Shown here: positions 4,543-14,579 of the stretch, one piece after another
Layout: each line of letters begins with the position of its first letter
Position numbering within the stretch: the first letter of the stretch is position 1
Source: Candidatus Parvarchaeum sp.
GTDB lineage: Archaea; Nanobdellota; Nanobdellia; Parvarchaeales; Parvarchaeaceae
Assembly: GCA_049965555.1 (NCBI GenBank)
Contig: JBMFWF010000012.1
Location: forward strand, 1-18,202
Length of the DNA stretch: 18,202 nt
Direction: 5' to 3'
Translations under genes and position numbers: made by a program
The notes under the pieces: model-generated
The model's database searches: none
The model's input: only the letters and a program-made list of their open reading frames with translations
What the model was told of the DNA's origin: nothing

Positions 4543-4798
4543 TTTTAACCACCTTTATTAACCGGAAGATCAATTCTATAAGCAATACGTTTGCAGCCAA
4601 AGACAAAAGGAAAAAAAGTACTCCTTGAAAAGTAAAAGAAAGCTGTTTGTCGGCAGAGCTTTCGAAAAGGCTAGCTAAAACAGTGCATATGAAAAGCTCG
4701 AGATTTATTGTCTCGAATCTTAAGTAGCTGAAAACCCTGTCTCCAGCCTTGTTTTCCACTTTACCTTTATTTCCAAACGTTGCTTCGAATTCTTCCAT
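4508..4798 (-). CDS. Small hypothetical membrane protein (2 TM)
   Basis: The likely start is ATG 4798 (MEEFEATFGNK..., 96 aa) rather than the listed 4897. Two hydrophobic segments (LELFICTVLASLF; GVLFFLLSLAANVLLIELIF). Confidence 0.55.
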   Translation of the reverse strand: MEEFEATFGNKGKVENKAGDRVFSYLRFETINLELFICTVLASLFESSADKQLSFTFQGVLFFLLSLAANVLLIELIFRLIKVVKNGKIRRFGRNA

Positions 4799-4861
4799 TT
4801 TTTTAGATTTTTTTGATAGATTATAGTAAAAACAAAAAAGTTTTATTTTATAGATTAAGCA

Positions 4862-5025
4862 GCCCAAACGTATGAAGTTGTTTTTATGAACCCGCAAGAC
4901 GTTTGGGCAGATTACCTTGTCTTGACAATGAGCTTATAGGCAGGGTGATTAAATGAATATGTCCATGAAAGCATATCTGCGAGTAAATCCTGCTTCACTT
5001 TACTCGCTGCATTCATGAGACTTTG
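4862..5025 (-). ncRNA. Candidate structured non-coding RNA (two long stem-loops), family unknown
   Basis: Perfect 10-bp inverted repeat GCCCAAACGT (4862-4871)/ACGTTTGGGC (4899-4908). Second long hairpin with CATGAA/TTCATG, GCA/TGC and perfect GCGAGTAAA/TTTACTCGC stems (about 4961-5021). A T-tract follows on the minus strand at about 4827-4839. Strand is inferred. Confidence 0.45.
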
Positions 5026-5053
5026 CATTATATGTTATGCTAGGAATTAGTAT

Positions 5054-5248
5054 GTGAACTACCCCAAGCTTCCGCATGGAGCTTCACGCTTCTTCGGAAA
5101 AGGTTGTTATCCTCTGCGTGCATACTGCCCGGTTCCCGAGCAACTATTTTATTCTCCTTCGGTCTTACATTGCACGAAGCTAATTTGTGCAAAAGAGCTT
5201 TCCCCTTTCGGGTAGGTGTAGCACTTTCAGCCTCCACCGAGACCTGCC
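5054..5248 (-). ncRNA. TnpB omegaRNA/reRNA-like scaffold, copy 1 (guide = flank ATACTAATTCCTAGCATAAC...)
   Basis: GCTCGG-GAA-CCGGGC hairpin, CACGC...GCGTG pairing in the context CACGCAGAG...GAAGAAGCGTGAAG, and the terminal RE hairpin plus TCAC. There is also a 5' multi-stem domain (GGTCT/AGACC, GGTG/CACC, CCC-GAAA-GGG, TTGCAC/GTGCAA). Confidence 0.6.
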
Positions 5249-5321
5249 TTTTACATATAATATCTGATTTTTCCTATATTTTTACTTTTCCTTACTGTCA
5301 GGGGAATTCTCTGCGGATTAG
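5054..5321 (-). mobile_element. Non-autonomous IS200/IS605-family derivative (PATE/MITE-like), copy 1, left end damaged
   Basis: The minus strand ends GAAG-CTCCATGC-GGAA-GCTTGGGG-TAGTTCAC, a subterminal hairpin plus TCAC typical of IS605/TnpB right ends. The left boundary abuts TTTAA. There is no TSD and no transposase or TnpB ORF. 5054-5290 matches 14266-14502 with one mismatch. Confidence 0.8.
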
Positions 5322-5331
5322 TTAAATCTAA

Positions 5332-6456
5332 TTATTTCTTTAGGCCAAAAAGCCCTTCTTTCAGCTTCAGCCCAAAACCGTGTCCTTTGCCTATTGTGTT
5401 TTTTCCTTTAATGGTCTTCAAGCCGCTGTAAACAAACCTGTTTTTATGCGTCAAGTGGGAGTCCAGATCAGAGAACCCTATGTCTTTTATAGAAAGCGCG
5501 AAATGCGTTCCTGCCGTTATGCCGACCCTGCTTTCCTCCATGCAGCCTACCATGATCCCTATGTTTTTTGACCTTGCTTCCTTCGCTATCTGCATGGCCT
5601 TTGTTATTCCCCCTGTTTTCATGAGCTTTATATTTACCATTGAAACCGCATTCATCCGCGCAAGTTTATTCAGGTCTTCGATTGTCTTCAATGACTCATC
5701 GGCCATTATCGGTACAGTGCTTTCTTCATTTAATTTTTTTAGAGAGTAAAGATCCGAGAATTTCACAGGCTGCTCCAGAAAACCCAGATTAAATTCCTTT
5801 GAATTTTCAAGGAAGAACTGTGCTTCTTGAAATGAATACCCCTGATTGGCGTCTGCGACTATTTTGATTGAATTGCCCACTGCCTCTCTTATCTTTTTTA
5901 TTCTTTTTAAGTCATTATCAACATCAAGGCCGACCTTGACCTTTATAACCTTAAATCCTTGTTTTTTATAGAATAAAGAATGCTTTACTGAAAGCTTTTC
6001 GCTTTCTATGCCTATCGTCATAGAAATCGGTTTTGCTTTTCCTTTTCCACCTAACAATGAAACCGCCTTTTTCCTTAAGATCTTTCCCACGAGATCATAT
6101 AAAGCCAGGTCTATCCCTGCCTTTGCGGTATTCTCTCCTTTTGACATTTCATCCAGTTCTCTGTTTATCCCTTTAAGGTCTAGAGCATCCTTTCCTTTCA
6201 ACTCCTCTGCAGCTCTTTCTATGAAGCTGGAAACTGAATAAGAGTCCTCATTGGTTACTTCTTTGTCCGGGGCTGCTTCACCGATCCCCTCGAACCCCTT
6301 TGCCTTTACACTTACGAAAACCGTTTTGCTTGATGAATAGGATTCATTTGCTATCCTCAATGGCTCGTTTAGAAGCAGATCCTCTACTTTAAATGTTATA
6401 TCATCTATCGGAAAAGCTGTTGTCTTACTAAGCTTTTGCATGCTAATTATTTGCAT
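5332..6456 (-). CDS. Dipeptide epimerase (L-Ala-D/L-Glu epimerase-like, enolase superfamily MLE subgroup)
   Basis: GIGEA, KAGIDLALYDL, KVK, DANQG, EQP, ADES, NIKLMKTGG, GCMEES and DLDS (DxD) motifs. Alternative start ATG at 6441. Confidence 0.9.
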   Translation of the reverse strand: MQIISMQKLSKTTAFPIDDITFKVEDLLLNEPLRIANESYSSSKTVFVSVKAKGFEGIGEAAPDKEVTNEDSYSVSSFIERAAEELKGKDALDLKGINRELDEMSKGENTAKAGIDLALYDLVGKILRKKAVSLLGGKGKAKPISMTIGIESEKLSVKHSLFYKKQGFKVIKVKVGLDVDNDLKRIKKIREAVGNSIKIVADANQGYSFQEAQFFLENSKEFNLGFLEQPVKFSDLYSLKKLNEESTVPIMADESLKTIEDLNKLARMNAVSMVNIKLMKTGGITKAMQIAKEARSKNIGIMVGCMEESRVGITAGTHFALSIKDIGFSDLDSHLTHKNRFVYSGLKTIKGKNTIGKGHGFGLKLKEGLFGLKK

Positions 6457-6500
6457 GCTATAAAGAAATATTTTTAAAAACCTGTTTTTATATAAGTAAA

Positions 6501-7214
6501 ATGTTGAAAAGAGAATTTTCCAGCTATCATGGAATATACAAGCAGGCCATAAAAGATTACAAGTGGCTTATAATCGCCGGCCTTGTTCTGTTTCTTCCAA
6601 GCATAATAATATACTCCATAAAACCCACTGCTTTACCTTACTGCCCTGTAGAACAGCTATGCTCTTCTTATTCAACGCCTTTGGGTGCATTCACTTCGAT
6701 CTTCATATATGATTCATGGACAAACATATTAGCATTTGTAGTTTTCTTTGTATTCCTGTGGGCCATAGAGATATTTGCAAGAGATTATGTAAGGCCCAGA
6801 AGAGCAAATTTCGCAGCTGTATTCATGTATGTTTCAGGGATATCTGCGAACTTGATAGAGATCGCATACAATCACAATATAATTTCATTCGGCCCTTCCG
6901 GTGTCGTCTATGCTTTCATAGGCATAATCGTTTCATTCAGCGTAATAAACATACTGCTGCCGAATTGGGAGCGCGGAAAGGACAGTATTACAAAAATAGA
7001 AGACAAGGGATACGTCCTTATTAACCTAATAGTTTTCGTGTTTTTCTTCCTCTGGATATTCTTTAGTCCAGGCAGCTTTATATCAAAGGCCCCGAATGTC
7101 AACTATGCAGTGCACGGAATAGCATTCACAATAGGGTTTGTAGGGACGTTTGTGAGAGCCATTATACTGCGGATAAGAGATATGCCAGAGCCAAAATACA
7201 TGCTTCGCAAGTAA
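6501..7214 (+). CDS. Rhomboid-family intramembrane serine protease
   Basis: About 6-7 TM segments. GPSGVVYA (GxSG catalytic Ser) and VNYAVHG (catalytic His). The TM2 HxxxN motif is degenerate. Confidence 0.8.
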   Translation: MLKREFSSYHGIYKQAIKDYKWLIIAGLVLFLPSIIIYSIKPTALPYCPVEQLCSSYSTPLGAFTSIFIYDSWTNILAFVVFFVFLWAIEIFARDYVRPRRANFAAVFMYVSGISANLIEIAYNHNIISFGPSGVVYAFIGIIVSFSVINILLPNWERGKDSITKIEDKGYVLINLIVFVFFFLWIFFSPGSFISKAPNVNYAVHGIAFTIGFVGTFVRAIILRIRDMPEPKYMLRK

Positions 7215-7279
7215 AGGCAGAGTAATACAAAGGTAATACAAATAAAAGGCATTTTAAAGACATATTTTCAATTAAAACT

Positions 7280-7636
7280 GTGGTAAAGGAGGGCTTGGCG
7301 CAAATAATAGAGTCTATTAAGAAAGACTCCTACGATTCTGTCATATTGGTTGAGGGAAAAAGGGACAAAGAGGCCCTTAAAAAAGCCGGGATACCTGGAT
7401 ATGCAATACTCCAGGTCTCTTACAAGGATGAGAATACAATATACAATGAATTGATTCTTTACCATAGAGATAAGATAATACCGCTTTACGATAACGACAG
7501 GACAGGGGAGAAAAAGCTTTCTAAGCTTAAGAACTTTCTTTGTGGAATGGGATTAAAACTTGTTGATTACAGAAGCTCCTTGAATGAAAACGGCATAACA
7601 TACATAGAAGAGATAGACAACAGGTTGGGCATCTGA
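7280..7636 (+). CDS. Small stand-alone Toprim-domain protein (RNase M5/primase-like)
   Basis: 118 aa, GTG start, ILVEGKRD and YDNDRTG (DxD) Toprim motifs. Confidence 0.85.
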   Translation: MVKEGLAQIIESIKKDSYDSVILVEGKRDKEALKKAGIPGYAILQVSYKDENTIYNELILYHRDKIIPLYDNDRTGEKKLSKLKNFLCGMGLKLVDYRSSLNENGITYIEEIDNRLGI

Positions 7637-7679
7637 ATTAATATATATACATTGCTTTTCTATACTTAAATAAAGATAT

Positions 7680-8696
7680 ATGAAATTTTATATTTCAATT
7701 GATTATTCCGACAGCGAAAGCAGGAAGGCACTGCCCTCACTCATAAGATTCATGAAGGAAAGAAAAGCAAAGTTCTCCATTGAAAAAAAGGAAAAGAAGG
7801 GCAAAGCTGAAGACCTCAAAGGATTTGACATGATAATAGCATTCGGCAGCAGCTTCAACGTACTAAGAACATTTAGACAAATGAAATCGGATATTCCTGT
7901 GCTGGGCGTTTCAATATATGAGAATGAGTTCCTTCCTGAAATAACACTAGAGGACTTCAAAAGGCTTTTCACAATAATAAACGACGGCAAGTACAGCATA
8001 GAAAAGAGGAACAGGCTGGAAGCATTTGTTGATGATAAACCGCTTCCGCCAGTATTGAATGAATTTGTTATAACTGCAAATAAGAGCGCATCAGTGATTT
8101 CATATTCATTGTATATTGACAAAAAGAAAATGTTCAATGATGAAGGGGACGGTATAATAGTGTCCACGCCTACTGGATCTACTGGCTACTCTTCCTCTTC
8201 TGGCGGGCCGGTAGTGCTGAATGATGCTGATATCATAGAATTAACGCCTTTATCCTCAATGCAGCAAAACAAGCCAATGATTGCAAACGGAAATTCATTA
8301 GTGACAATAGATAACCTGAATTCCAAGAGCGGGATAGATATCGTATCAGATGGGAGATTCCGCTACCAGTTCAGAGGTAAGAGGATAACCATAAGGAAAT
8401 ATGAACAGCCGGCCAATTTTATCACGATAAATGAAATAAAGAAAACACCGATAGAGAAGATGAAAAGCAGGGAATTAAGCATGCCTAAAATAGATGATGC
8501 CCCGCCTTCTGCTAAGTTCATACTCAAGCTTTTGCAGTATGAGGGGCCGTTGACACAGAAGGACATAATAAGCCTGTCAGCACTGCAGATAAGAACGGTT
8601 AGGCATGGCATCCTCTACCTTAAAAAGAAGGGCCTTATAGAGGAAAATAAGACGCTTAGAGATGCAAGGTTCAGCATTTACAGGCTCAAGAATTAA
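7680..8696 (+). CDS. NAD-kinase-fold protein with degenerate GGDG motif fused to a C-terminal winged HTH (putative regulator)
   Basis: Retains LNE and GDGIIVSTPTGSTGYSSSSGGP. IIAFGSSFNVL replaces IxxGGDGTxL. The C-terminus PPSAKFILKLLQYEGPLTQKDII...RTVRHGILYLKKKGLIEE...DARFSIYRL is a MarR/ArsR-like wHTH. Confidence 0.85.
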   Translation: MKFYISIDYSDSESRKALPSLIRFMKERKAKFSIEKKEKKGKAEDLKGFDMIIAFGSSFNVLRTFRQMKSDIPVLGVSIYENEFLPEITLEDFKRLFTIINDGKYSIEKRNRLEAFVDDKPLPPVLNEFVITANKSASVISYSLYIDKKKMFNDEGDGIIVSTPTGSTGYSSSSGGPVVLNDADIIELTPLSSMQQNKPMIANGNSLVTIDNLNSKSGIDIVSDGRFRYQFRGKRITIRKYEQPANFITINEIKKTPIEKMKSRELSMPKIDDAPPSAKFILKLLQYEGPLTQKDIISLSALQIRTVRHGILYLKKKGLIEENKTLRDARFSIYRLKN

Positions 8697-10107
8697 GTTT
8701 TTCCTCCATTATCCTGTTCCTTGCATCAAGTATGTCTTTTCCTATTCTAACAGGGAATGGTTCAAAGTCCTCCAATCGCCGATATCTTTCCTGCAAGGAT
8801 GAAAGCTGTCTTTTTGTGTATTCTTTTATTTCCTTTAACGATGGAAAATCGTAAACCAACTTTCCGCCTTCTATTGCCGGCACAAGAAGCTGCTGGTATC
8901 CTTTGTATTTATTGCTAGAAGGCCTGTCTATTATATCATCAAGCATGAATCCATCTTCAAACCTGCGGTATATTTGCTTGTTAAAAGGCAATGTCGTTTT
9001 ATCGCTGCTGCTTATCTTTATCTTTGGAATAAATGTTCCATTTTCCTCTTCTTCCACAAGCTTGTAAACTCCCCCCAAAGCAGATACGCCTCCTTTCTTT
9101 GAAATCGAATTATAGTTTGCCGCAGTGTCCAGCCTTGTCCCAACACCGTAAATGTCTATCGGAGCATTGTTCTTTACAAAGTAATCTATCTGGTATTCAT
9201 CCAGATCGCTGCTTGCTATTATCTTTGTGTTTGAAAAGCCGTTATCATCAAGTATCCTCCTTACCTGCCTGCTTAGTTGTAGCAGATCGCCGCCGTCTAT
9301 CCTGACGCCTTTTAAGTCGTATCCTCTCCTTCTGAGCTCATTCCCAACAATGCAGGCATTCTGTGCCCCTTTCAAAGTATCATATGTGTCTATGAGGAAA
9401 ACTGCGTCATTTGGAAACGATTCAGCGTATTCCCTAAAGGCCTCAAGTTCGCTTTCCCTTTCCTGAACGAACTTATGTGGCATAGTTCCTGAATATGGTA
9501 TACCAAGTTTCATTGCAGCAGATACCAATGCTGTCCCTGCCGCCCCTCCTATGTAAGAGGCCCTTGAACTTAAAATTGCCGCATCCCTTCCGTGTGCCCT
9601 TCTTGCGCCAAAATCAAGGAAGGCTTTGCCGTTTGAAGCGTATGCTATCCTGGCTGCCTTGGTCGCCACCATGGTTTGGAAGTTCATAACAGAAAGGATA
9701 TAAGTTTCAAATAGTTGCACTTCTATTGAATTGCCGGTCACAGTGATTATTGGCTCATTTGGAAACACGACAGTCCCTTCTGGCACTGCATTCACATTTC
9801 CTTTAAACTTAAAGTTCTGCAGGTAATCTAGAAAATCGTCTGTTAATGCGCCGTTTGAGCTTTCTTTCAGCCACTCTGCCTCTTCTTTGCTTAGCTTAAA
9901 GTTTTTTATGAAGCTGATTACCTGCTCTAAACCAGTAGCAACCATATAACCGCCCAGGTTTTCAGGTATGTTCCTGAAATAATACACCTCGGTTATCTTA
10001 TTGTTTCTCCCATGATCGAAGTTCGCCTGGCCGCTTGTAAGCTCGTAATAGTCAAGAAAAAGCGGCATTTCAGAGTCATTCATTAAAAGTGAATTCAGTT
10101 TTTCCAT
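8686..10107 (-). CDS. pncB: Nicotinate phosphoribosyltransferase
   Basis: LDYYELT, AVPEGTVVFPNEP, QLFET, DFGARRAHG, GTMPH, LIDTYD, GVRIDGGD, SSDLDE, YGVGT and GVYKL motifs. Confidence 0.95.
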   Translation of the reverse strand: MEKLNSLLMNDSEMPLFLDYYELTSGQANFDHGRNNKITEVYYFRNIPENLGGYMVATGLEQVISFIKNFKLSKEEAEWLKESSNGALTDDFLDYLQNFKFKGNVNAVPEGTVVFPNEPIITVTGNSIEVQLFETYILSVMNFQTMVATKAARIAYASNGKAFLDFGARRAHGRDAAILSSRASYIGGAAGTALVSAAMKLGIPYSGTMPHKFVQERESELEAFREYAESFPNDAVFLIDTYDTLKGAQNACIVGNELRRRGYDLKGVRIDGGDLLQLSRQVRRILDDNGFSNTKIIASSDLDEYQIDYFVKNNAPIDIYGVGTRLDTAANYNSISKKGGVSALGGVYKLVEEEENGTFIPKIKISSSDKTTLPFNKQIYRRFEDGFMLDDIIDRPSSNKYKGYQQLLVPAIEGGKLVYDFPSLKEIKEYTKRQLSSLQERYRRLEDFEPFPVRIGKDILDARNRIMEEKLNS

Positions 10108-10115
10108 AACTATAG

Positions 10116-10132
10116 AAGAAATGGCATTTCTT
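10116..10132. promoter_or_regulatory. Perfect 17-bp palindrome AAGAAATG-G-CATTTCTT, candidate operator in the pncB/pncA divergent promoter
   Basis: 8-bp arms with a 1-nt spacer, lying between a TATA-like TTAATA (minus strand, about 10137-10132) and the pncB ATG at 10107. A related half-site AAAAATGGCA occurs on the minus strand at 10180-10189. Confidence 0.55.
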
Positions 10133-10245
10133 ATTAAGGAATCTAAATGGGAAATTTTTGCAGCTTATTTTAGTCCATGTGCCATTTTTTCCCACACTAA
10201 ACATGATTTAAAGAATCGCTGACAAAGAGTTGAAAAGGAGGTAAT

Positions 10246-10863
10246 ATGGAAAAAGCTTTATTGCTGGTGGATTTGATAAAGGGCTTCGGCCAAGAGGGAT
10301 ACGACAAGAACATGTACTGCAGAAACGTGGAAAAAATAAAGGGAAGTCTACAGCAGCTTGTTGAGTATGCTAATAAAAACAACATACCTGTAATATACTG
10401 CTGTGATGCGCATGAAAACAATGACCCTGAACTGAAAAGAAACGGCGGGCCCTGGGAGGAGCACTGCATGAAAGGCACTGAAAGCAGTGACATTGTTGAT
10501 TGGCTCCCTTCTAAAAATTTATTGAAATTAACGAATACTGACGCAAAATATAAGATCATCGGCAAGGAAGCACAAAATAAAATGTACAGGATCGACAAGA
10601 GAACTTACAGCGGGTTCTACAATACAGTTCTTGATGAGCTGTTAAAAAATAACGGCATAAAGGAAGTTTACATTGCAGGACTTGTGACAAGCATATGCGT
10701 TCAGCATACAGCTGCTGATGCATTCTTCAGAGGCTACAAAATTAATATTGTTGAAAACGGATGCGCCGACACAAACAACGAAAAACATGAAAATGCCATA
10801 GAGTACATGAAAAACAACTATTCTGCTAAGATAGTTGAGATGGAGAAAACTGGTTTGAAATAA
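10246..10863 (+). CDS. pncA: Nicotinamidase / isochorismatase-family cysteine hydrolase
   Basis: LLLVD (catalytic Asp), DAH, WEEHC, DKRTYSGF (Lys) and GLVTSICVQHTAADA (catalytic Cys). SD AGGAGG upstream. Clustered with pncB and nadE. Confidence 0.9.
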   Translation: MEKALLLVDLIKGFGQEGYDKNMYCRNVEKIKGSLQQLVEYANKNNIPVIYCCDAHENNDPELKRNGGPWEEHCMKGTESSDIVDWLPSKNLLKLTNTDAKYKIIGKEAQNKMYRIDKRTYSGFYNTVLDELLKNNGIKEVYIAGLVTSICVQHTAADAFFRGYKINIVENGCADTNNEKHENAIEYMKNNYSAKIVEMEKTGLK

Positions 10864-10877
10864 CACTCTGTGTGTAT

Positions 10878-11705
10878 ATGGAAATTCCAAGCGAATTAAG
10901 GATAAATGAAAAAAGCGCAGTTGAGTACACCGTTAAATGGGTAAAGGATTACTTTAAACCACTTAAAACCAAAAAAGCTGTAATTGGGTTATCGGGCGGA
11001 GGTGATTCTACTTTTACAGCTTACGTCTGCAGAATAGCACTTGGAAAGGAAAATGTTCTTGGAGTGATAATGCCTTCTGATTCAAATCCAGAAGAGGATG
11101 AAAAAGATGCATATGCAGTTGCAAAGGCAATCGGGATTAGTGCAAAGACGATAGATATCTCACCGATAATGAAGGCAATAGAAAGGGAAAATCCTGAATT
11201 AAAGGAAGAAAAGAACAGGATTGCAAGGGCAAACATAAAGGCAAGGCTGAGGATGCTTCTTTTGTACAAGGAAGCAAATGAATCAAACGCTTTAGTTGCG
11301 GGAACTGACGACAGAAGTGAACATGCTTTAGGTTATTACACAAAATATGGGGATGGAGGAGTCGATATAAATGTGCCAGAGCATCTTTACAAGATGCAAG
11401 TTAGGCAGATACTTCTGTGGATAGGGGAAAATGAGAATATGGGCATATTTGAAAAGATAGCTGAGAAGGTGCCTTCTCCAAGGCTATGGAAGGGACAGAC
11501 AGCAGAAAACGAGCTTGACATCCATTACGAAGATATTGACAGAATACTTTATACCATGAACGAAAAGAAGATAAGGACTGCTGAGAGGATAGCAAATCAA
11601 ACCGGTATAAAAAAGAGTAAAGTAATGAAAGTCCTGAAAATGATGCAGAAAAATGCGCACAAAAACACCCTGCCGCCCTCTCCCCCTATAAGATATTTTA
11701 ACTAA
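10878..11705 (+). CDS. nadE: NH3-dependent NAD+ synthetase
   Basis: GLSGGGDS PP-loop, NIKARLRM, GYYTKYGDGGVD, LYKMQV and PSPRLWKGQTAENEL. No glutaminase domain. ATG 10878 is preferred over GTG 10872. Confidence 0.95.
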   Translation: MEIPSELRINEKSAVEYTVKWVKDYFKPLKTKKAVIGLSGGGDSTFTAYVCRIALGKENVLGVIMPSDSNPEEDEKDAYAVAKAIGISAKTIDISPIMKAIERENPELKEEKNRIARANIKARLRMLLLYKEANESNALVAGTDDRSEHALGYYTKYGDGGVDINVPEHLYKMQVRQILLWIGENENMGIFEKIAEKVPSPRLWKGQTAENELDIHYEDIDRILYTMNEKKIRTAERIANQTGIKKSKVMKVLKMMQKNAHKNTLPPSPPIRYFN

Positions 11706-11722
11706 AAGAGGCATTAATTGAA

Positions 11723-12481
11723 ATGAAAATAAAGATAATCTCAAAGAAAAATTACCCTGAGCTGAAGAAACTTTATAGAAGATTCGATATTTCAGATGAT
11801 GCAGGAGTGTGCATTGCCGTAGGCGGTGACGGTACTTTCATAAAGGCAGCAAATGAATTTGATGGGCCCATTCTGCCGGTAAGAAGCGATGAAAAGAACA
11901 GCACAGGGTATTATGCAGATGTTGGCCTTAAAGACATTGACTTTATAATTAAAAGCCTGCTGTCCAAAAATTATAAAGTAGAAGAAATTGGAAGAAAAAT
12001 AGAGGTTGGTTATGATAAAAGCAAGTATTACGGAGTGAATGAGATCCTTTTAAAGGACATACAGGAAGAGGTTTACTTTAAACTTTATTATGATGAAAAG
12101 GAAAAAAGAAACAGGCTTTATGAATACACTTTAAGCGGAGATGGCTTTTTGGTAACCAGCGCAATAGGTTCTACAGCATACAATAGAACTGCAGGTGGCC
12201 CAATAATACTGGATAAAGACGTGCTGTGCCTTACTTTTCTGTCGATAGAGAACCCGCTTACTAATTCTGTCATACTGAGAAAAGATGAAAAACTGCATGT
12301 TGAAATAGAGAAAGGGAGAGGAGTGCTCAGCTATGACGGCATAGTTATAAGCGAAGTCAGCCCGGGCAAATCCTTTGACATCAGGCTTTCAAACAAAAAG
12401 GTAAAAGTTTTGAAACTGAAAAACCATTATGAAGAGTTCTCTGAGAAGCTGTCTAGAATAATAAAAAGCAAGATGAACTGA
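11723..12481 (+). CDS. nadK: NAD(+)/NADH kinase (intact catalytic motif)
   Basis: IAVGGDGTFI, VNE, GDGFLVTSAIGSTAYNRTAGGP and YDG motifs. Lies downstream of nadE. Confidence 0.9.
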   Translation: MKIKIISKKNYPELKKLYRRFDISDDAGVCIAVGGDGTFIKAANEFDGPILPVRSDEKNSTGYYADVGLKDIDFIIKSLLSKNYKVEEIGRKIEVGYDKSKYYGVNEILLKDIQEEVYFKLYYDEKEKRNRLYEYTLSGDGFLVTSAIGSTAYNRTAGGPIILDKDVLCLTFLSIENPLTNSVILRKDEKLHVEIEKGRGVLSYDGIVISEVSPGKSFDIRLSNKKVKVLKLKNHYEEFSEKLSRIIKSKMN

Positions 12482-12535
12482 ACGTTAGGGTAGAAAAGCA
12501 AAAGATATTTAAGTTATTGTAGTTATCAAAAAACA

Positions 12536-12856
12536 ATGGCAAAGATGTTCTTTTTTGTTATAAGTGCAGACTCTGAAAAGATAAACATGGCCGTAGGCTT
12601 TGCTTCTAGAAGAAAAGAAAAAGGAGATGAAGTAAGGTTCCTTGTTTTCGGGCCGGCAGAAAACTTTATAGCAGAGCATGGAGAATTGATTGAAAACATA
12701 GACAAAGTTAAGGAAGCGATCAAGCCAAAGGCCTGTGTGTTCATAGCCCAGCAGAACAAACTTGAAGACAAGTTCAAGGGCCATTTGGAATTGTTGCCTG
12801 CCGGAGAATACATGTCAAAATCAATAGAAGAGGGCTTTTCAATTATAACTATCTAA
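12536..12856 (+). CDS. DsrE/DsrF-like small protein
   Basis: 106 aa with the pattern EVRFLVFGPAE...KACVFIA...AGEYMSKSIEEGFSIITI and a single Cys. Confidence 0.7.
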   Translation: MAKMFFFVISADSEKINMAVGFASRRKEKGDEVRFLVFGPAENFIAEHGELIENIDKVKEAIKPKACVFIAQQNKLEDKFKGHLELLPAGEYMSKSIEEGFSIITI

Positions 12857-12889
12857 ATAGGAATGATTTTAGTTTAGAGTAAACCTTAC

Positions 12890-14209
12890 TTACATCGATT
12901 TAACGGTCTTTTCGAGCCTATTCAATCCCTCTAGGATCTCGTCTTCCTTTATTGCAAGAGAAGGTCTAAATCTAATCCCTTTTTCTCCTGTCTTTAGGGC
13001 AAGCATACCATTCTCCCTGTAAAGCTTGTCTATGAACCTGTCTCTCTCTGCAGTGTCCTTCAAATCAAAGGCCACCATCAAGCCTCTGCCTCTCGCATTG
13101 TATATCTTATCGGGATATTTTTCTTGCAGATCCTGTATGCCTTTAAGAAGCTCTCTACCTCTTATTTCTGCGTTTTCTACCAAATTATCCTCTTTTATTA
13201 TTTCCAGATATCGCGTAGCTCTCACCATATCGGCAAGGTTTCCTCCCCATGTTGAATTTATCCTGCTGGGAACATGGAAGACATGCTCTTCGATGTCCTC
13301 TATCCTATCGCTTACCATTATACCGCAGACTTGCAGCTTCTTCCCAAACACAAGTATATCGGGATTGAAATCAAAATGCTGATATGCCCACCATTTGCCT
13401 GTAGCGCCCATGCCGGTCTGGACCTCGTCTACTATGAAAAGCATTTCATTTTCATCTGTGAATCTTCTAAGCCTCTGAAAATACTCTTTTCTAAAGTGAT
13501 TGTCTCCGCCCTCTGCCTGTATCGGTTCTATTATAAGGGCCGCTATATTGTCTTTGTCCTTCTTGACAGCTTCTTCTGCCTCTTCAAGGCTTTTGTTTTC
13601 AAGGTCTTCCACCTTCTTTAAGTTCTCTTCATTCAAAGGAAAAGTTATCTTTGGATTTGTAATTCTGGGCCAATTGAACTTGGGAAAGTACTTTATCTTG
13701 TTCGGATCAAAGGTGTTAGTAAGAGAAAGAGTATAACCTGATCTGCCATGAAAGGCCTCTTTAAGGTGCATTATTTTCTGTCCTTTCTCCTCCTTATGGC
13801 CATTCATAAAGTTCTTCCTTACCTTCCAATCTATTGCGGTTTTAAGCGCATTTTCAACTGCTAATGCGCCGCCTTCAATAAAGAAGTAATGCTTCATGTG
13901 AGTAGGCGCGGCTATCCTATCCAAAGCGTCTACAAACTCTGCCATTTCGACAGTATAAACGTCGCTGTTTGTTGGCTTGTTTATCGCTGCCCTCTGCAGC
14001 TTCTTCAAAAATGATGGCTCAAACATCTTGTCATGGTTCATCCCGATTGTAGAAGTTGCGAAGAAACCAAAAAAGTCCAATAGTTTTTTATCATGCAAAG
14101 AATCGTAAAGCCATGATCCCTTTGATTTTTCCAGATCGAGAACGAAATCATAGCCGTCTGCAAGGATGTGCCTGCCTAGTATAGAATGCACATCTTCTGG
14201 CTTTATCAT
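12890..14209 (-). CDS. lat: L-lysine 6-aminotransferase (class III PLP aminotransferase)
   Basis: HILADG, LDFFGFFA, EGGALAVENALK, FHGRSGYTLSLTNT, EPIQAEGGD, DEVQTG, FGKK.QVCG and RINSTWGG motifs. Confidence 0.92.
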   Translation of the reverse strand: MIKPEDVHSILGRHILADGYDFVLDLEKSKGSWLYDSLHDKKLLDFFGFFATSTIGMNHDKMFEPSFLKKLQRAAINKPTNSDVYTVEMAEFVDALDRIAAPTHMKHYFFIEGGALAVENALKTAIDWKVRKNFMNGHKEEKGQKIMHLKEAFHGRSGYTLSLTNTFDPNKIKYFPKFNWPRITNPKITFPLNEENLKKVEDLENKSLEEAEEAVKKDKDNIAALIIEPIQAEGGDNHFRKEYFQRLRRFTDENEMLFIVDEVQTGMGATGKWWAYQHFDFNPDILVFGKKLQVCGIMVSDRIEDIEEHVFHVPSRINSTWGGNLADMVRATRYLEIIKEDNLVENAEIRGRELLKGIQDLQEKYPDKIYNARGRGLMVAFDLKDTAERDRFIDKLYRENGMLALKTGEKGIRFRPSLAIKEDEILEGLNRLEKTVKSM

Positions 14210-14265
14210 GATATTTATATGCGCTATTAAGATTTAATAATTACATTTTTGCTTTTACAAGATAT

Positions 14266-14460
14266 GTGAACTACCCCAAGCTTCCGCATGGAGCTTCACG
14301 CTTCTTCGGAAAAGGTTGTTATCCTCTGCGTGCATACTGCCCGGTTCCCGAGCAACTATTTTATTCTCCTTCGGTCTTACATTGCACGAAGCTAATTTGT
14401 GCAAAAGAGCTTTCCCCTTTCGGGTAGGTGTAGCACTTTCAGCCTCCACCGAGACCTGCC
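14266..14460 (-). ncRNA. TnpB omegaRNA/reRNA-like scaffold, copy 2 (guide = flank ATATCTTGTAAAAGCAAAAA...)
   Basis: Identical to 5054-5248 with the same hairpins and a different 3' flank. Confidence 0.6.
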
Positions 14461-14553
14461 TTTTACATATAATATCTGATTTTTCCCATATTTTTACTTT
14501 TCTTACCGCCCTTCATCCCACATCTTACGAAAGGAGACTTTTTGGTGGATTAT
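14266..14553 (-). mobile_element. Non-autonomous IS200/IS605-family derivative, copy 2, with imperfect left-end hairpin
   Basis: Same right end ...GGGGTAGTTCAC. The left end (minus strand) reads TTTAA|ATAATCCACCAA-AAAG-TCTCCTTTC-GTAA-GATGTGGGA-TGAAGGGCGG, with the hairpin at 14516-14537. It is a direct repeat of copy 1 at an offset of 9212 nt. Confidence 0.82.
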
Positions 14554-14579
14554 TTAAATCGATTTAATCTAATATTCTA

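Follow-up and report, generated by a model that had tools for sequence, protein, structure and literature searches.

In the window, i.e., the whole 18,202-nt stretch of the Candidatus Parvarchaeum sp. contig JBMFWF010000012.1 that was analysed, two protein-less cassettes of 268 and 288 nt lie on the minus strand at 5054-5321 and 14266-14553, and both are true insertions directly 3' of a TTTAA motif, without target-site duplication. On the whole, it is probable that these cassettes are gene-less, non-autonomous derivatives of TnpB-type IS200/IS605 elements, of the kind described as palindrome-associated transposable elements (PATEs) or standalone omegaRNAs, which would be programmed with a guide by their insertion site and would have a selfish role in their own retention. 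Their origin, boundaries and target motif, the structured module they share with tnpB elements and the occurrence of tnpB in this genome were established directly, while the guide function and the retention role are argued from the published biology of TnpB.

Extent of the cassettes and their empty sites

A repeat search over the window returned a 240-nt direct repeat in two copies (5051-5290 and 14263-14502), identical at 239 of 240 positions in a base-by-base comparison, with a single mismatch (5275 T vs 14487 C) and no further identity beyond either end. Such a repeat within 18 kb, together with the independent matches of the covariance model R1 described below, is more than chance. The first three repeat positions (5051-5053 and 14263-14265) belong to the flanks and lie outside the elements, as both targets start with ATA. 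Read on the minus strand, the 3' side of either copy is ...GAAGCUCCAUGCGGAAGCUUGGGGUAGUUCAC, i.e., a hairpin followed by AGTTCAC, directly after which they diverge (ATACTAATTCC... in copy 1, ATATCTTGTAA... in copy 2). GATTTAA immediately precedes the start of both elements, and the near-identity ends 31 nt (copy 1) or 51 nt (copy 2) before the TTTAA boundary; the left-end parts (5291-5321 vs 14503-14553) differ by several substitutions and by indels of about 20 nt in total. An earlier, sequence-only reading of this DNA had stated that 5054-5290 and 14266-14502 differ by one base and that both elements start after GATTTAA and end in a hairpin; these statements hold, with the addition that the near-identity stops short of the left boundary.

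The boundaries follow from relatives in which the cassettes are absent, found by searching about 1.8 kb around each cassette against the genomes of the genus. Site 1 is empty in four relatives (G012, G023, G002 and G013), where it reads ...TTAACTTTAA|ATACTATT..., i.e., TTTAA|ATACTA..., while site 2 is empty in five (G001, G012, G023, G045 and G005), where it reads GTTTAA|ATATCTTGTAAA... or ATATTT..., which written from the motif onwards is TTTAA|ATATCTTG.... In all of these the two flanks abut, nothing is duplicated and TTTAA is kept, so the elements occupy 5054-5321 and 14266-14553, and the role of TTTAA as the insertion motif, proposed from the letters alone, is borne out. Public sequencing runs point the same way: in all four DNA runs examined (of 16 listed, the runs holding only small shares), the contigs over 4700-5700 end precisely at 5053|5054 with the empty sequence of site 1 on their loose ends (TTAAAGTTAATGATT..., plus strand), and further contigs start at 5054 with other flanks. 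These contigs are 85-99% alike to the window and therefore mostly derive from relatives.

Cassettes and target motifs are as follows.
5054..5321, minus strand: cassette 1, protein-less IS200/IS605-type element, 268 nt (empty sites; contig breaks at 5053|5054)
5322..5326, minus strand: TTTAA target or transposon-adjacent motif (TAM), directly 5' of cassette 1 (direct reading; kept in the empty sites of relatives)
14266..14553, minus strand: cassette 2, protein-less element of the same type, 288 nt (empty sites)
14554..14558, minus strand: TTTAA target motif of cassette 2 (direct reading; empty sites)

No protein-coding capacity was detected in either cassette, as none of the four open reading frames (ORFs) inside them (64-83 aa) matches any Pfam family at E <= 0.01, while the controls in the same scan, the tnpB fragment and a full-length tnpB, match OrfB_IS605 and Cas12f1-like_TNB. 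This agrees with the earlier statement that the cassettes encode neither TnpA nor TnpB. No tRNA or tmRNA was found in the window.

The structured right end and its tnpB-bearing relatives

A link to TnpB elements is given by R1, which was built from 15 right ends, all tnpB-linked (seven from genomes of the genus, eight of metagenomic origin), with the cassettes left out. RNAalifold gave 34 pairs for these right ends, 20 of them with compensatory changes, arranged in a hairpin A, a long-range stem (GCUCGC... with ...GCGAG), a stem B, a hairpin C and a terminal hairpin. Run unfiltered over the whole window, R1 matched only 5054-5147 and 14266-14359, both on the minus strand and each with 76.7 bits (E 1.5e-14, model positions 1-119, the whole length of R1). 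Across 42 sources it gave 26 matches; in their alignment, which was fitted to R1 itself, 91.7% of the cells are paired, compared with 33-43% when the partners are slid, and 22 of the 34 pairs change on both sides.

In the cassettes hairpin A is kept with compensatory changes (GCUCGG/CCGGGC vs GGUAGG/CCUGCC), the long-range stem represents a third pair type (CACGC/GCGUG vs CUCGC/GCGAG and CCCGU/GCGGG), and the terminal hairpin and AGUUCAC are retained, with the right-end hairpin intact in both copies. Many U-G and G-U pairs suit the minus strand alone. By the covariance model, then, the 3' 94 nt of the cassettes are homologous to the structured right end of tnpB, and the flank follows directly. 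The covariance search suggested in the sequence-only reading thus finds both cassettes when the model is made from TnpB-linked right ends; its view of the cassette as a right-end guide scaffold stands for these 94 nt, while one stem and one hairpin of the scaffold are gone and some 106 nt have been added as a 5' domain. The module was placed with R1.
5054..5147, minus strand: 3' scaffold module of cassette 1, with hairpin A (GCUCGG-GAA-CCGGGC), stem CACGC/GCGUG, terminal hairpin and AGUUCAC
14266..14359, minus strand: 3' scaffold module of cassette 2

The genome to which the window belongs (G000) is of a very small archaeal type (783 kb in 28 contigs, 92% complete), and it contains further copies. 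A third long copy lies at C6:22368-22608 (96% identity) and a 5'-truncated one on C9, while matches limited to the right end were found on C4 (two), C10, C17 and C3, where the C3 copy consists of the left end, the first ~40 tnpB codons (MRNYKFRPYPNK...) and the right end. The gene itself was assembled only as fragments at the ends of contigs, namely two N-terminal halves (C4:1-434 and C13:1-434), the middle (C25, 575 nt) and the 3' end (C10:1-128). C25 lies above the Pfam cut-offs for OrfB_IS605 and Cas12f1-like_TNB, on direct reading it keeps the RuvC residues IDVG, KAESAG and DRDYN, and its 3'-terminal 16 nt overlap with the start of C10, from where C10 runs on into the right end. The pieces at contig ends mean that G000 carries at least two tnpB copies, split by the assembly, and repeat collapse probably hides at least two full ones. 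The cognate tnpB is thus present in the genome, with no single intact copy assembled.

Relatives of the C25 fragment occur in 18 of the 33 genomes of the genus, G000 included, and six full-length loci (L039-L044) have open frames of 402-413 aa. The ends were compared in five of these six, L042 being left out. In L040, L041, L043 and L044 the left end is TTTAAC|(A/G)A(G/T)TCCGC(C/T)G(A/G)GAATTCC..., in place of which L039 has the 3' end of tnpA directly upstream, and the right end of all five is ...GAAGCGAGAAGC-hairpin-GGGGTAG|TTC(A/G)C. The cassettes match the first four loci at both ends, and share only the right end with L039. In L040, L041, L043, L044 and L006 tnpB stops (TAG in GGGG-TAG-TTCAC) 5 nt short of the end of the element, which means that the last ~40 TnpB residues (...REPASMLAEL...KREAPCKNLG) are encoded by the structured scaffold itself. 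The protein of G048 has the Pfam domains HTH_OrfB_IS605, OrfB_IS605 and Cas12f1-like_TNB, and aligns with the solved ISDra2 TnpB structures over residues 5-368 (E 1e-48). With these shared ends and the R1 matches, the proposal that the cassettes are IS200/IS605 TnpB-type derivatives is supported; the genome search called for in the sequence-only reading returned further scaffold copies in G000 as well as full-length tnpB parents in the genus, so its worry that no tnpB with a matching right end would exist does not apply (C25/C10 in G000, full-length loci in the genus).

In public metagenomes the right-end pattern was found at at least 120 loci. Open frames of ~300-460 aa that terminate at the same TAG occur at approximately 13 of these loci and are absent from many others, so gene-less derivatives of this TnpB family are common. 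A shorter pattern, CAGTATGCNCGCAGAG, gave 119 loci in genome contigs that looked like chance, the pattern being too short, and a filter over all 119 left none with the element signature; three were also read by eye, and one is a real relative. This element (L124:650-760, in a Candidatus Parvarchaeota archaeon record) is about 100 nt long and reads TTTAAAC|AAGTCTGCC...GGGTAGTCCAC, with a few left-end bases fused straight to the right-end scaffold, i.e., an even smaller derivative of the same family. Other tnpB clades coexist in the genus, with 38-53% identity to the C25 fragment (L046, L052-L055, L058, L061 and L067), and their ends differ (e.g., right ...GGGAGGATGTCAC, left GTGAGCGG...).

Upstream of the scaffold module the cassettes differ from their parents. 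The ~106-nt 5' domain is identical in both copies, and searching 16 full-length tnpB elements with the cassette middle (blastn and blastx) found nothing significant except 13 nt, GGCTGAAAGTGCT, which are the KAESAG codons of tnpB. The long-type cassette, which carries this domain, was found in five of the 33 genomes of the genus (G000, G005, G013, G018 and G006), and its pattern had no match in the metagenomes. The proposed fold, in which an outer stem GGUCU/AGACC closes three hairpins, recurs in single-sequence folds. An alignment of the eight long-type copies with MAFFT and RNAalifold gave a poor consensus (25 pairs, 1 compensatory) and was set aside for a hand-made structure, derived from one of these eight sequences, with which 84% of the cells in the alignment are paired, compared with 30-42% when slid, and 10 of 46 pairs change on both sides.

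Beyond the 5' domain follow an A/T-rich box, AAAAGTAAAAATAT, and the left end. The full-length elements carry AAAGTATAAAA at the position of AAAAGTAAAAATAT, ~30 nt before the tnpB ATG, and we infer that the box is the retained tnpB promoter, a putative archaeal one. The left-end hairpin has lost its 3' arm in cassette 1 and is weakened in cassette 2. Since the left end of copy 1 resembles the C9/C4 type and that of copy 2 the C6 type, near-identical bodies with mosaic left ends suggest recombination or gene conversion between copies rather than one recent jump.
5148..5253, minus strand: 5' domain of cassette 1 RNA, ~106 nt (eight sequences, hand-made structure)
14360..14465, minus strand: 5' domain of cassette 2, with the same sequence as in cassette 1 (sequence comparison)
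5276..5289, minus strand: A/T-rich box AAAAGTAAAAATAT (left ends aligned by eye)
5291..5321, minus strand: left-end remnant of cassette 1, CTAATCCGCAGAGAATTCCCCTGACAGTAAG (compared with copy 2, C6, C9, C4 and the full-length elements)

Two side observations concern the surroundings. The 9 kb between the cassettes contain housekeeping genes, mostly for NAD salvage, with a compact NAD salvage/biosynthesis cluster at 7680-12481 (two NAD kinase-like genes, NAPRTase, an isochorismatase-family gene and NAD synthase). A composite transposon with these genes as its cargo and the two cassettes as its ends was considered and ruled out by the spacing in G012, where both empty sites lie on one contig ~8.95 kb apart, as in the window. 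Ten small contigs of G000 (C19-C28, 507-934 nt) have a G+C of 0.30-0.54 and unrelated open frames, and some of them may not be part of this genome.

Proposed mode of action and competing explanations

To hypothesize how the cassettes act, we drew on the published biology of TnpB (PMC10055086, PMC10691335 and the preprint 10.1101/2023.03.06.531077). The minus strand would be transcribed, probably from the retained tnpB promoter-like box, into a scaffold of about 200 nt running on into the flank. This RNA would be bound in trans by TnpB expressed from those copies in the genome that bear tnpB, and TnpB would take ~16-20 nt of the flank as guide, a role of the 3' flanks that we infer by analogy with those systems.
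5034..5053, minus strand: putative guide 1, 3' flank ATACTAATTCCTAGCATAAC (divergence after AGTTCAC; equals the empty-site sequence after TTTAA)
14246..14265, minus strand: putative guide 2, 3' flank ATATCTTGTAAAAGCAAAAA (divergence after AGTTCAC; empty sites)

The eight right ends in G000 all have different flanks, none of which matches anything but itself over its full 20 nt, and among the 5160 TTTAA sites of the genome the best match to either window guide is 11/16. Each guide is identical to the stretch downstream of TTTAA in the empty sites, which is expected from insertion alone, and is also what the published homing model needs. The only TTTAA-adjacent sequence to pair with a guide would be the element's own empty donor site, so the likely effect is a selfish one: after excision the vacated site would be re-cut and recombination would restore the element, while mobilisation would require Y1 TnpA in trans.

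Several results weigh against this explanation. Y1 TnpA (PF01797) had no match in G000, a genome 92% complete in which repeats are possibly unassembled, and was found in only two of the 33 genomes of the genus. The cassettes are without stem B and hairpin C, ~30 model positions being reduced to 5 nt with a short U-rich/purine-rich stretch in their place; this loss and the extra 5' domain put their fit with the resident TnpB in question. The support for the fold of the 5' domain is weak, owing to its derivation from a single sequence of its own alignment. Cassette 1, with half of its left-end hairpin gone, may no longer be mobile. The right ends of the cassettes in G013, G018 and G006 are degenerate, no TnpB above ~50% identity to the C25 fragment was found in these three genomes, and the copies look like decaying relics. 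Finally, Rfam 15 had no match in the window at the gathering thresholds, and at permissive thresholds the sole match over 5000-5360 was SNORA71 (E 1), which is at chance level.

Of these observations, the halved left-end hairpin of cassette 1, the lack of a TnpA match in G000, the lost scaffold parts and the degenerate copies in G013, G018 and G006, together with the 5'-truncated copy on C9, make up the case for the strongest competitor, namely that the cassettes share the TnpB-element origin but are now inert relics, either untranscribed or not recognised by TnpB. We regard this as a serious, though clearly less probable, alternative. The bodies of the two copies are identical at 239 of 240 positions and were therefore copied or converted recently, the promoter-like box and the terminal AGUUCAC are intact, as are all the helices that were retained, the compensatory changes preserve hairpin A and the long-range stem, and the genome contains tnpB of this family.

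A more far-reaching proposal, which we consider rather doubtful, sees in the long-type cassette an RNA-only hyperparasite lineage of TnpB elements and not a random deletion product. In such a lineage the tnpB promoter would have been fused to the guide scaffold, the stem and hairpin discarded and the ~106-nt 5' domain gained, and its persistence would depend on autonomous relatives, whose TnpB it would use for retention and whose TnpA for movement. It would possibly also replace host promoters, as its TTTAA target coincides with archaeal TATA boxes; the host gene would then be transcribed as an omegaRNA-mRNA fusion, and the 38-aa ORF at site 1 would be a case.

This ORF (4912-5028, minus strand, downstream of cassette 1, with the target region of site 1 at 5019-5053) is conserved in G012 (MQS.MNAA.KVKQDLLADMLSWTYSFNHPAYKLIVKTR). 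The insertion at site 1 splits a TTTAAATA box centred ~27 nt before its ATG, apparently the TATA box (TTTAA|ATA) of a leaderless 38-aa gene, and the promoter-like box of cassette 1 is directed towards it. One could argue from this that the cassettes act mainly in cis, as mobile promoter or leader modules by which the neighbouring gene is rewired. It seems unlikely, since TTTAA is simply frequent in A/T-rich spacers (5160 sites in the genome), site 2 lies ~57 nt before the next start codon with a nearer A/T box that on direct reading is intact, and the other copies are not situated in such boxes.

It seems even less likely that the cassettes are host-serving, CRISPR-free guide genes which steer TnpB, or a relative without nuclease activity, towards host promoters or foreign DNA. 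The sequence-only reading saw in the cassettes a distributed, CRISPR-free guide repertoire, and it is true that they are dispersed, with one scaffold and differing 3' flanks, and that nuclease-dead TnpB relatives (TldR) are known as RNA-guided repressors. However, the search for TTTAA followed by the guide returned only self-matches in G000, without a second target and with nothing better than the 11/16 given above, and there was no match to either guide in the viral collection, which was searched for exact 20-mers only. The guides equal the empty-site flanks, as insertion alone predicts, and the orthologous sites in relatives are empty, no cassette being conserved at one locus across species. 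Furthermore, the resident TnpB fragment keeps its RuvC residues and so is not of the dead-repressor type. A role in host defence or host gene control is not the likely one. Nor is the idea of such a repertoire new, as standalone omegaRNAs acting in trans have already been published (PMC10691335 and PMC10055086).

An assembly artefact, which the fragmentation into 28 contigs might suggest and which the sequence-only reading had itself raised as a collapse producing the identity, can be dismissed along with an ordinary structured RNA gene unrelated to transposons, because the two copies are contained in a single contig and have unique flanks, other genomes and runs show empty sites and exact breakpoints (5053|5054), and the ends are common to tnpB elements, with R1 matches and without Rfam or tRNA matches.

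Relation to known systems and meaning

Standalone omegaRNAs without an effector are described as occurring beside effector loci and functioning in trans (PMC10691335, citing Altae-Tran et al. 2021), and the cassettes resemble them in being mobilised, in lacking effector and transposase, in having effector loci in the same genome and in a guide that would be taken from the flank. The published examples there are bacterial (Ktedonobacter), whereas the cassettes belong to a very small archaeal-type genome; their scaffold is also remodelled, with one stem and a hairpin lost and the ~106-nt 5' domain added. PATEs arise from IS605-type elements through deletion of the core (PMC3119063, Haloquadratum) and often encode omegaRNAs dependent on TnpB in trans (PMC10055086, Geobacillus stearothermophilus). 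Like the cassettes, they cause no target duplication, are too short for a protein, and have IS605-type ends and an origin by internal deletion. PATEs are also described with near-terminal palindromes and without terminal inverted repeats; of the end hairpins of the cassettes, the right one is intact in both copies, while the left one is weakened in cassette 2 and partly lost in cassette 1. Unlike PATEs of fused termini alone, the cassettes have retained about 200 nt of structured RNA together with a promoter-like box.

The earlier remark that TTTAA is a reported archaeal TAM is borne out for SisTnpB1 of Sulfolobus islandicus (preprint 10.1101/2023.03.06.531077), an archaeal TnpB which by its description is comparable in its 5'-TTTAA TAM and its guide RNA derived from the right end, although its system is a tnpA and tnpB element and not a gene-less derivative. 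With the ISDra2 TnpB-omegaRNA complexes (PDB 8bf8, 8exa and 8h1j) the family shares a scaffold overlapping the 3' end of tnpB and a guide starting at the transposon end, but the TAM of ISDra2 is TTGAT (same preprint), and in the family described here no more than 5 nt separate the tnpB stop codon from the end of the element. CRISPR arrays and TldR guide RNAs likewise pair RNA guides with a Cas12/TnpB-type protein, whereas the cassettes are without a repeat-spacer array or adaptation, their guides being fixed by the insertion site, and, in contrast to TldR, the resident TnpB fragment keeps its catalytic residues.

The central idea of standalone guide-RNA genes is thus already in print, and the remodelled scaffold is the one distinctive trait here. 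The current picture is unchanged, since standalone omegaRNAs and PATEs were known before and there is no sign of a host function. What the analysis documents is gene-less guide-RNA carriers of a TTTAA-motif TnpB family in a 0.78 Mb archaeal-type genome, with precise empty sites and a scaffold covariance model as resources, which can be used for annotating repeats overlooked by Rfam and for picking minimal scaffold variants for archaeal TnpB.

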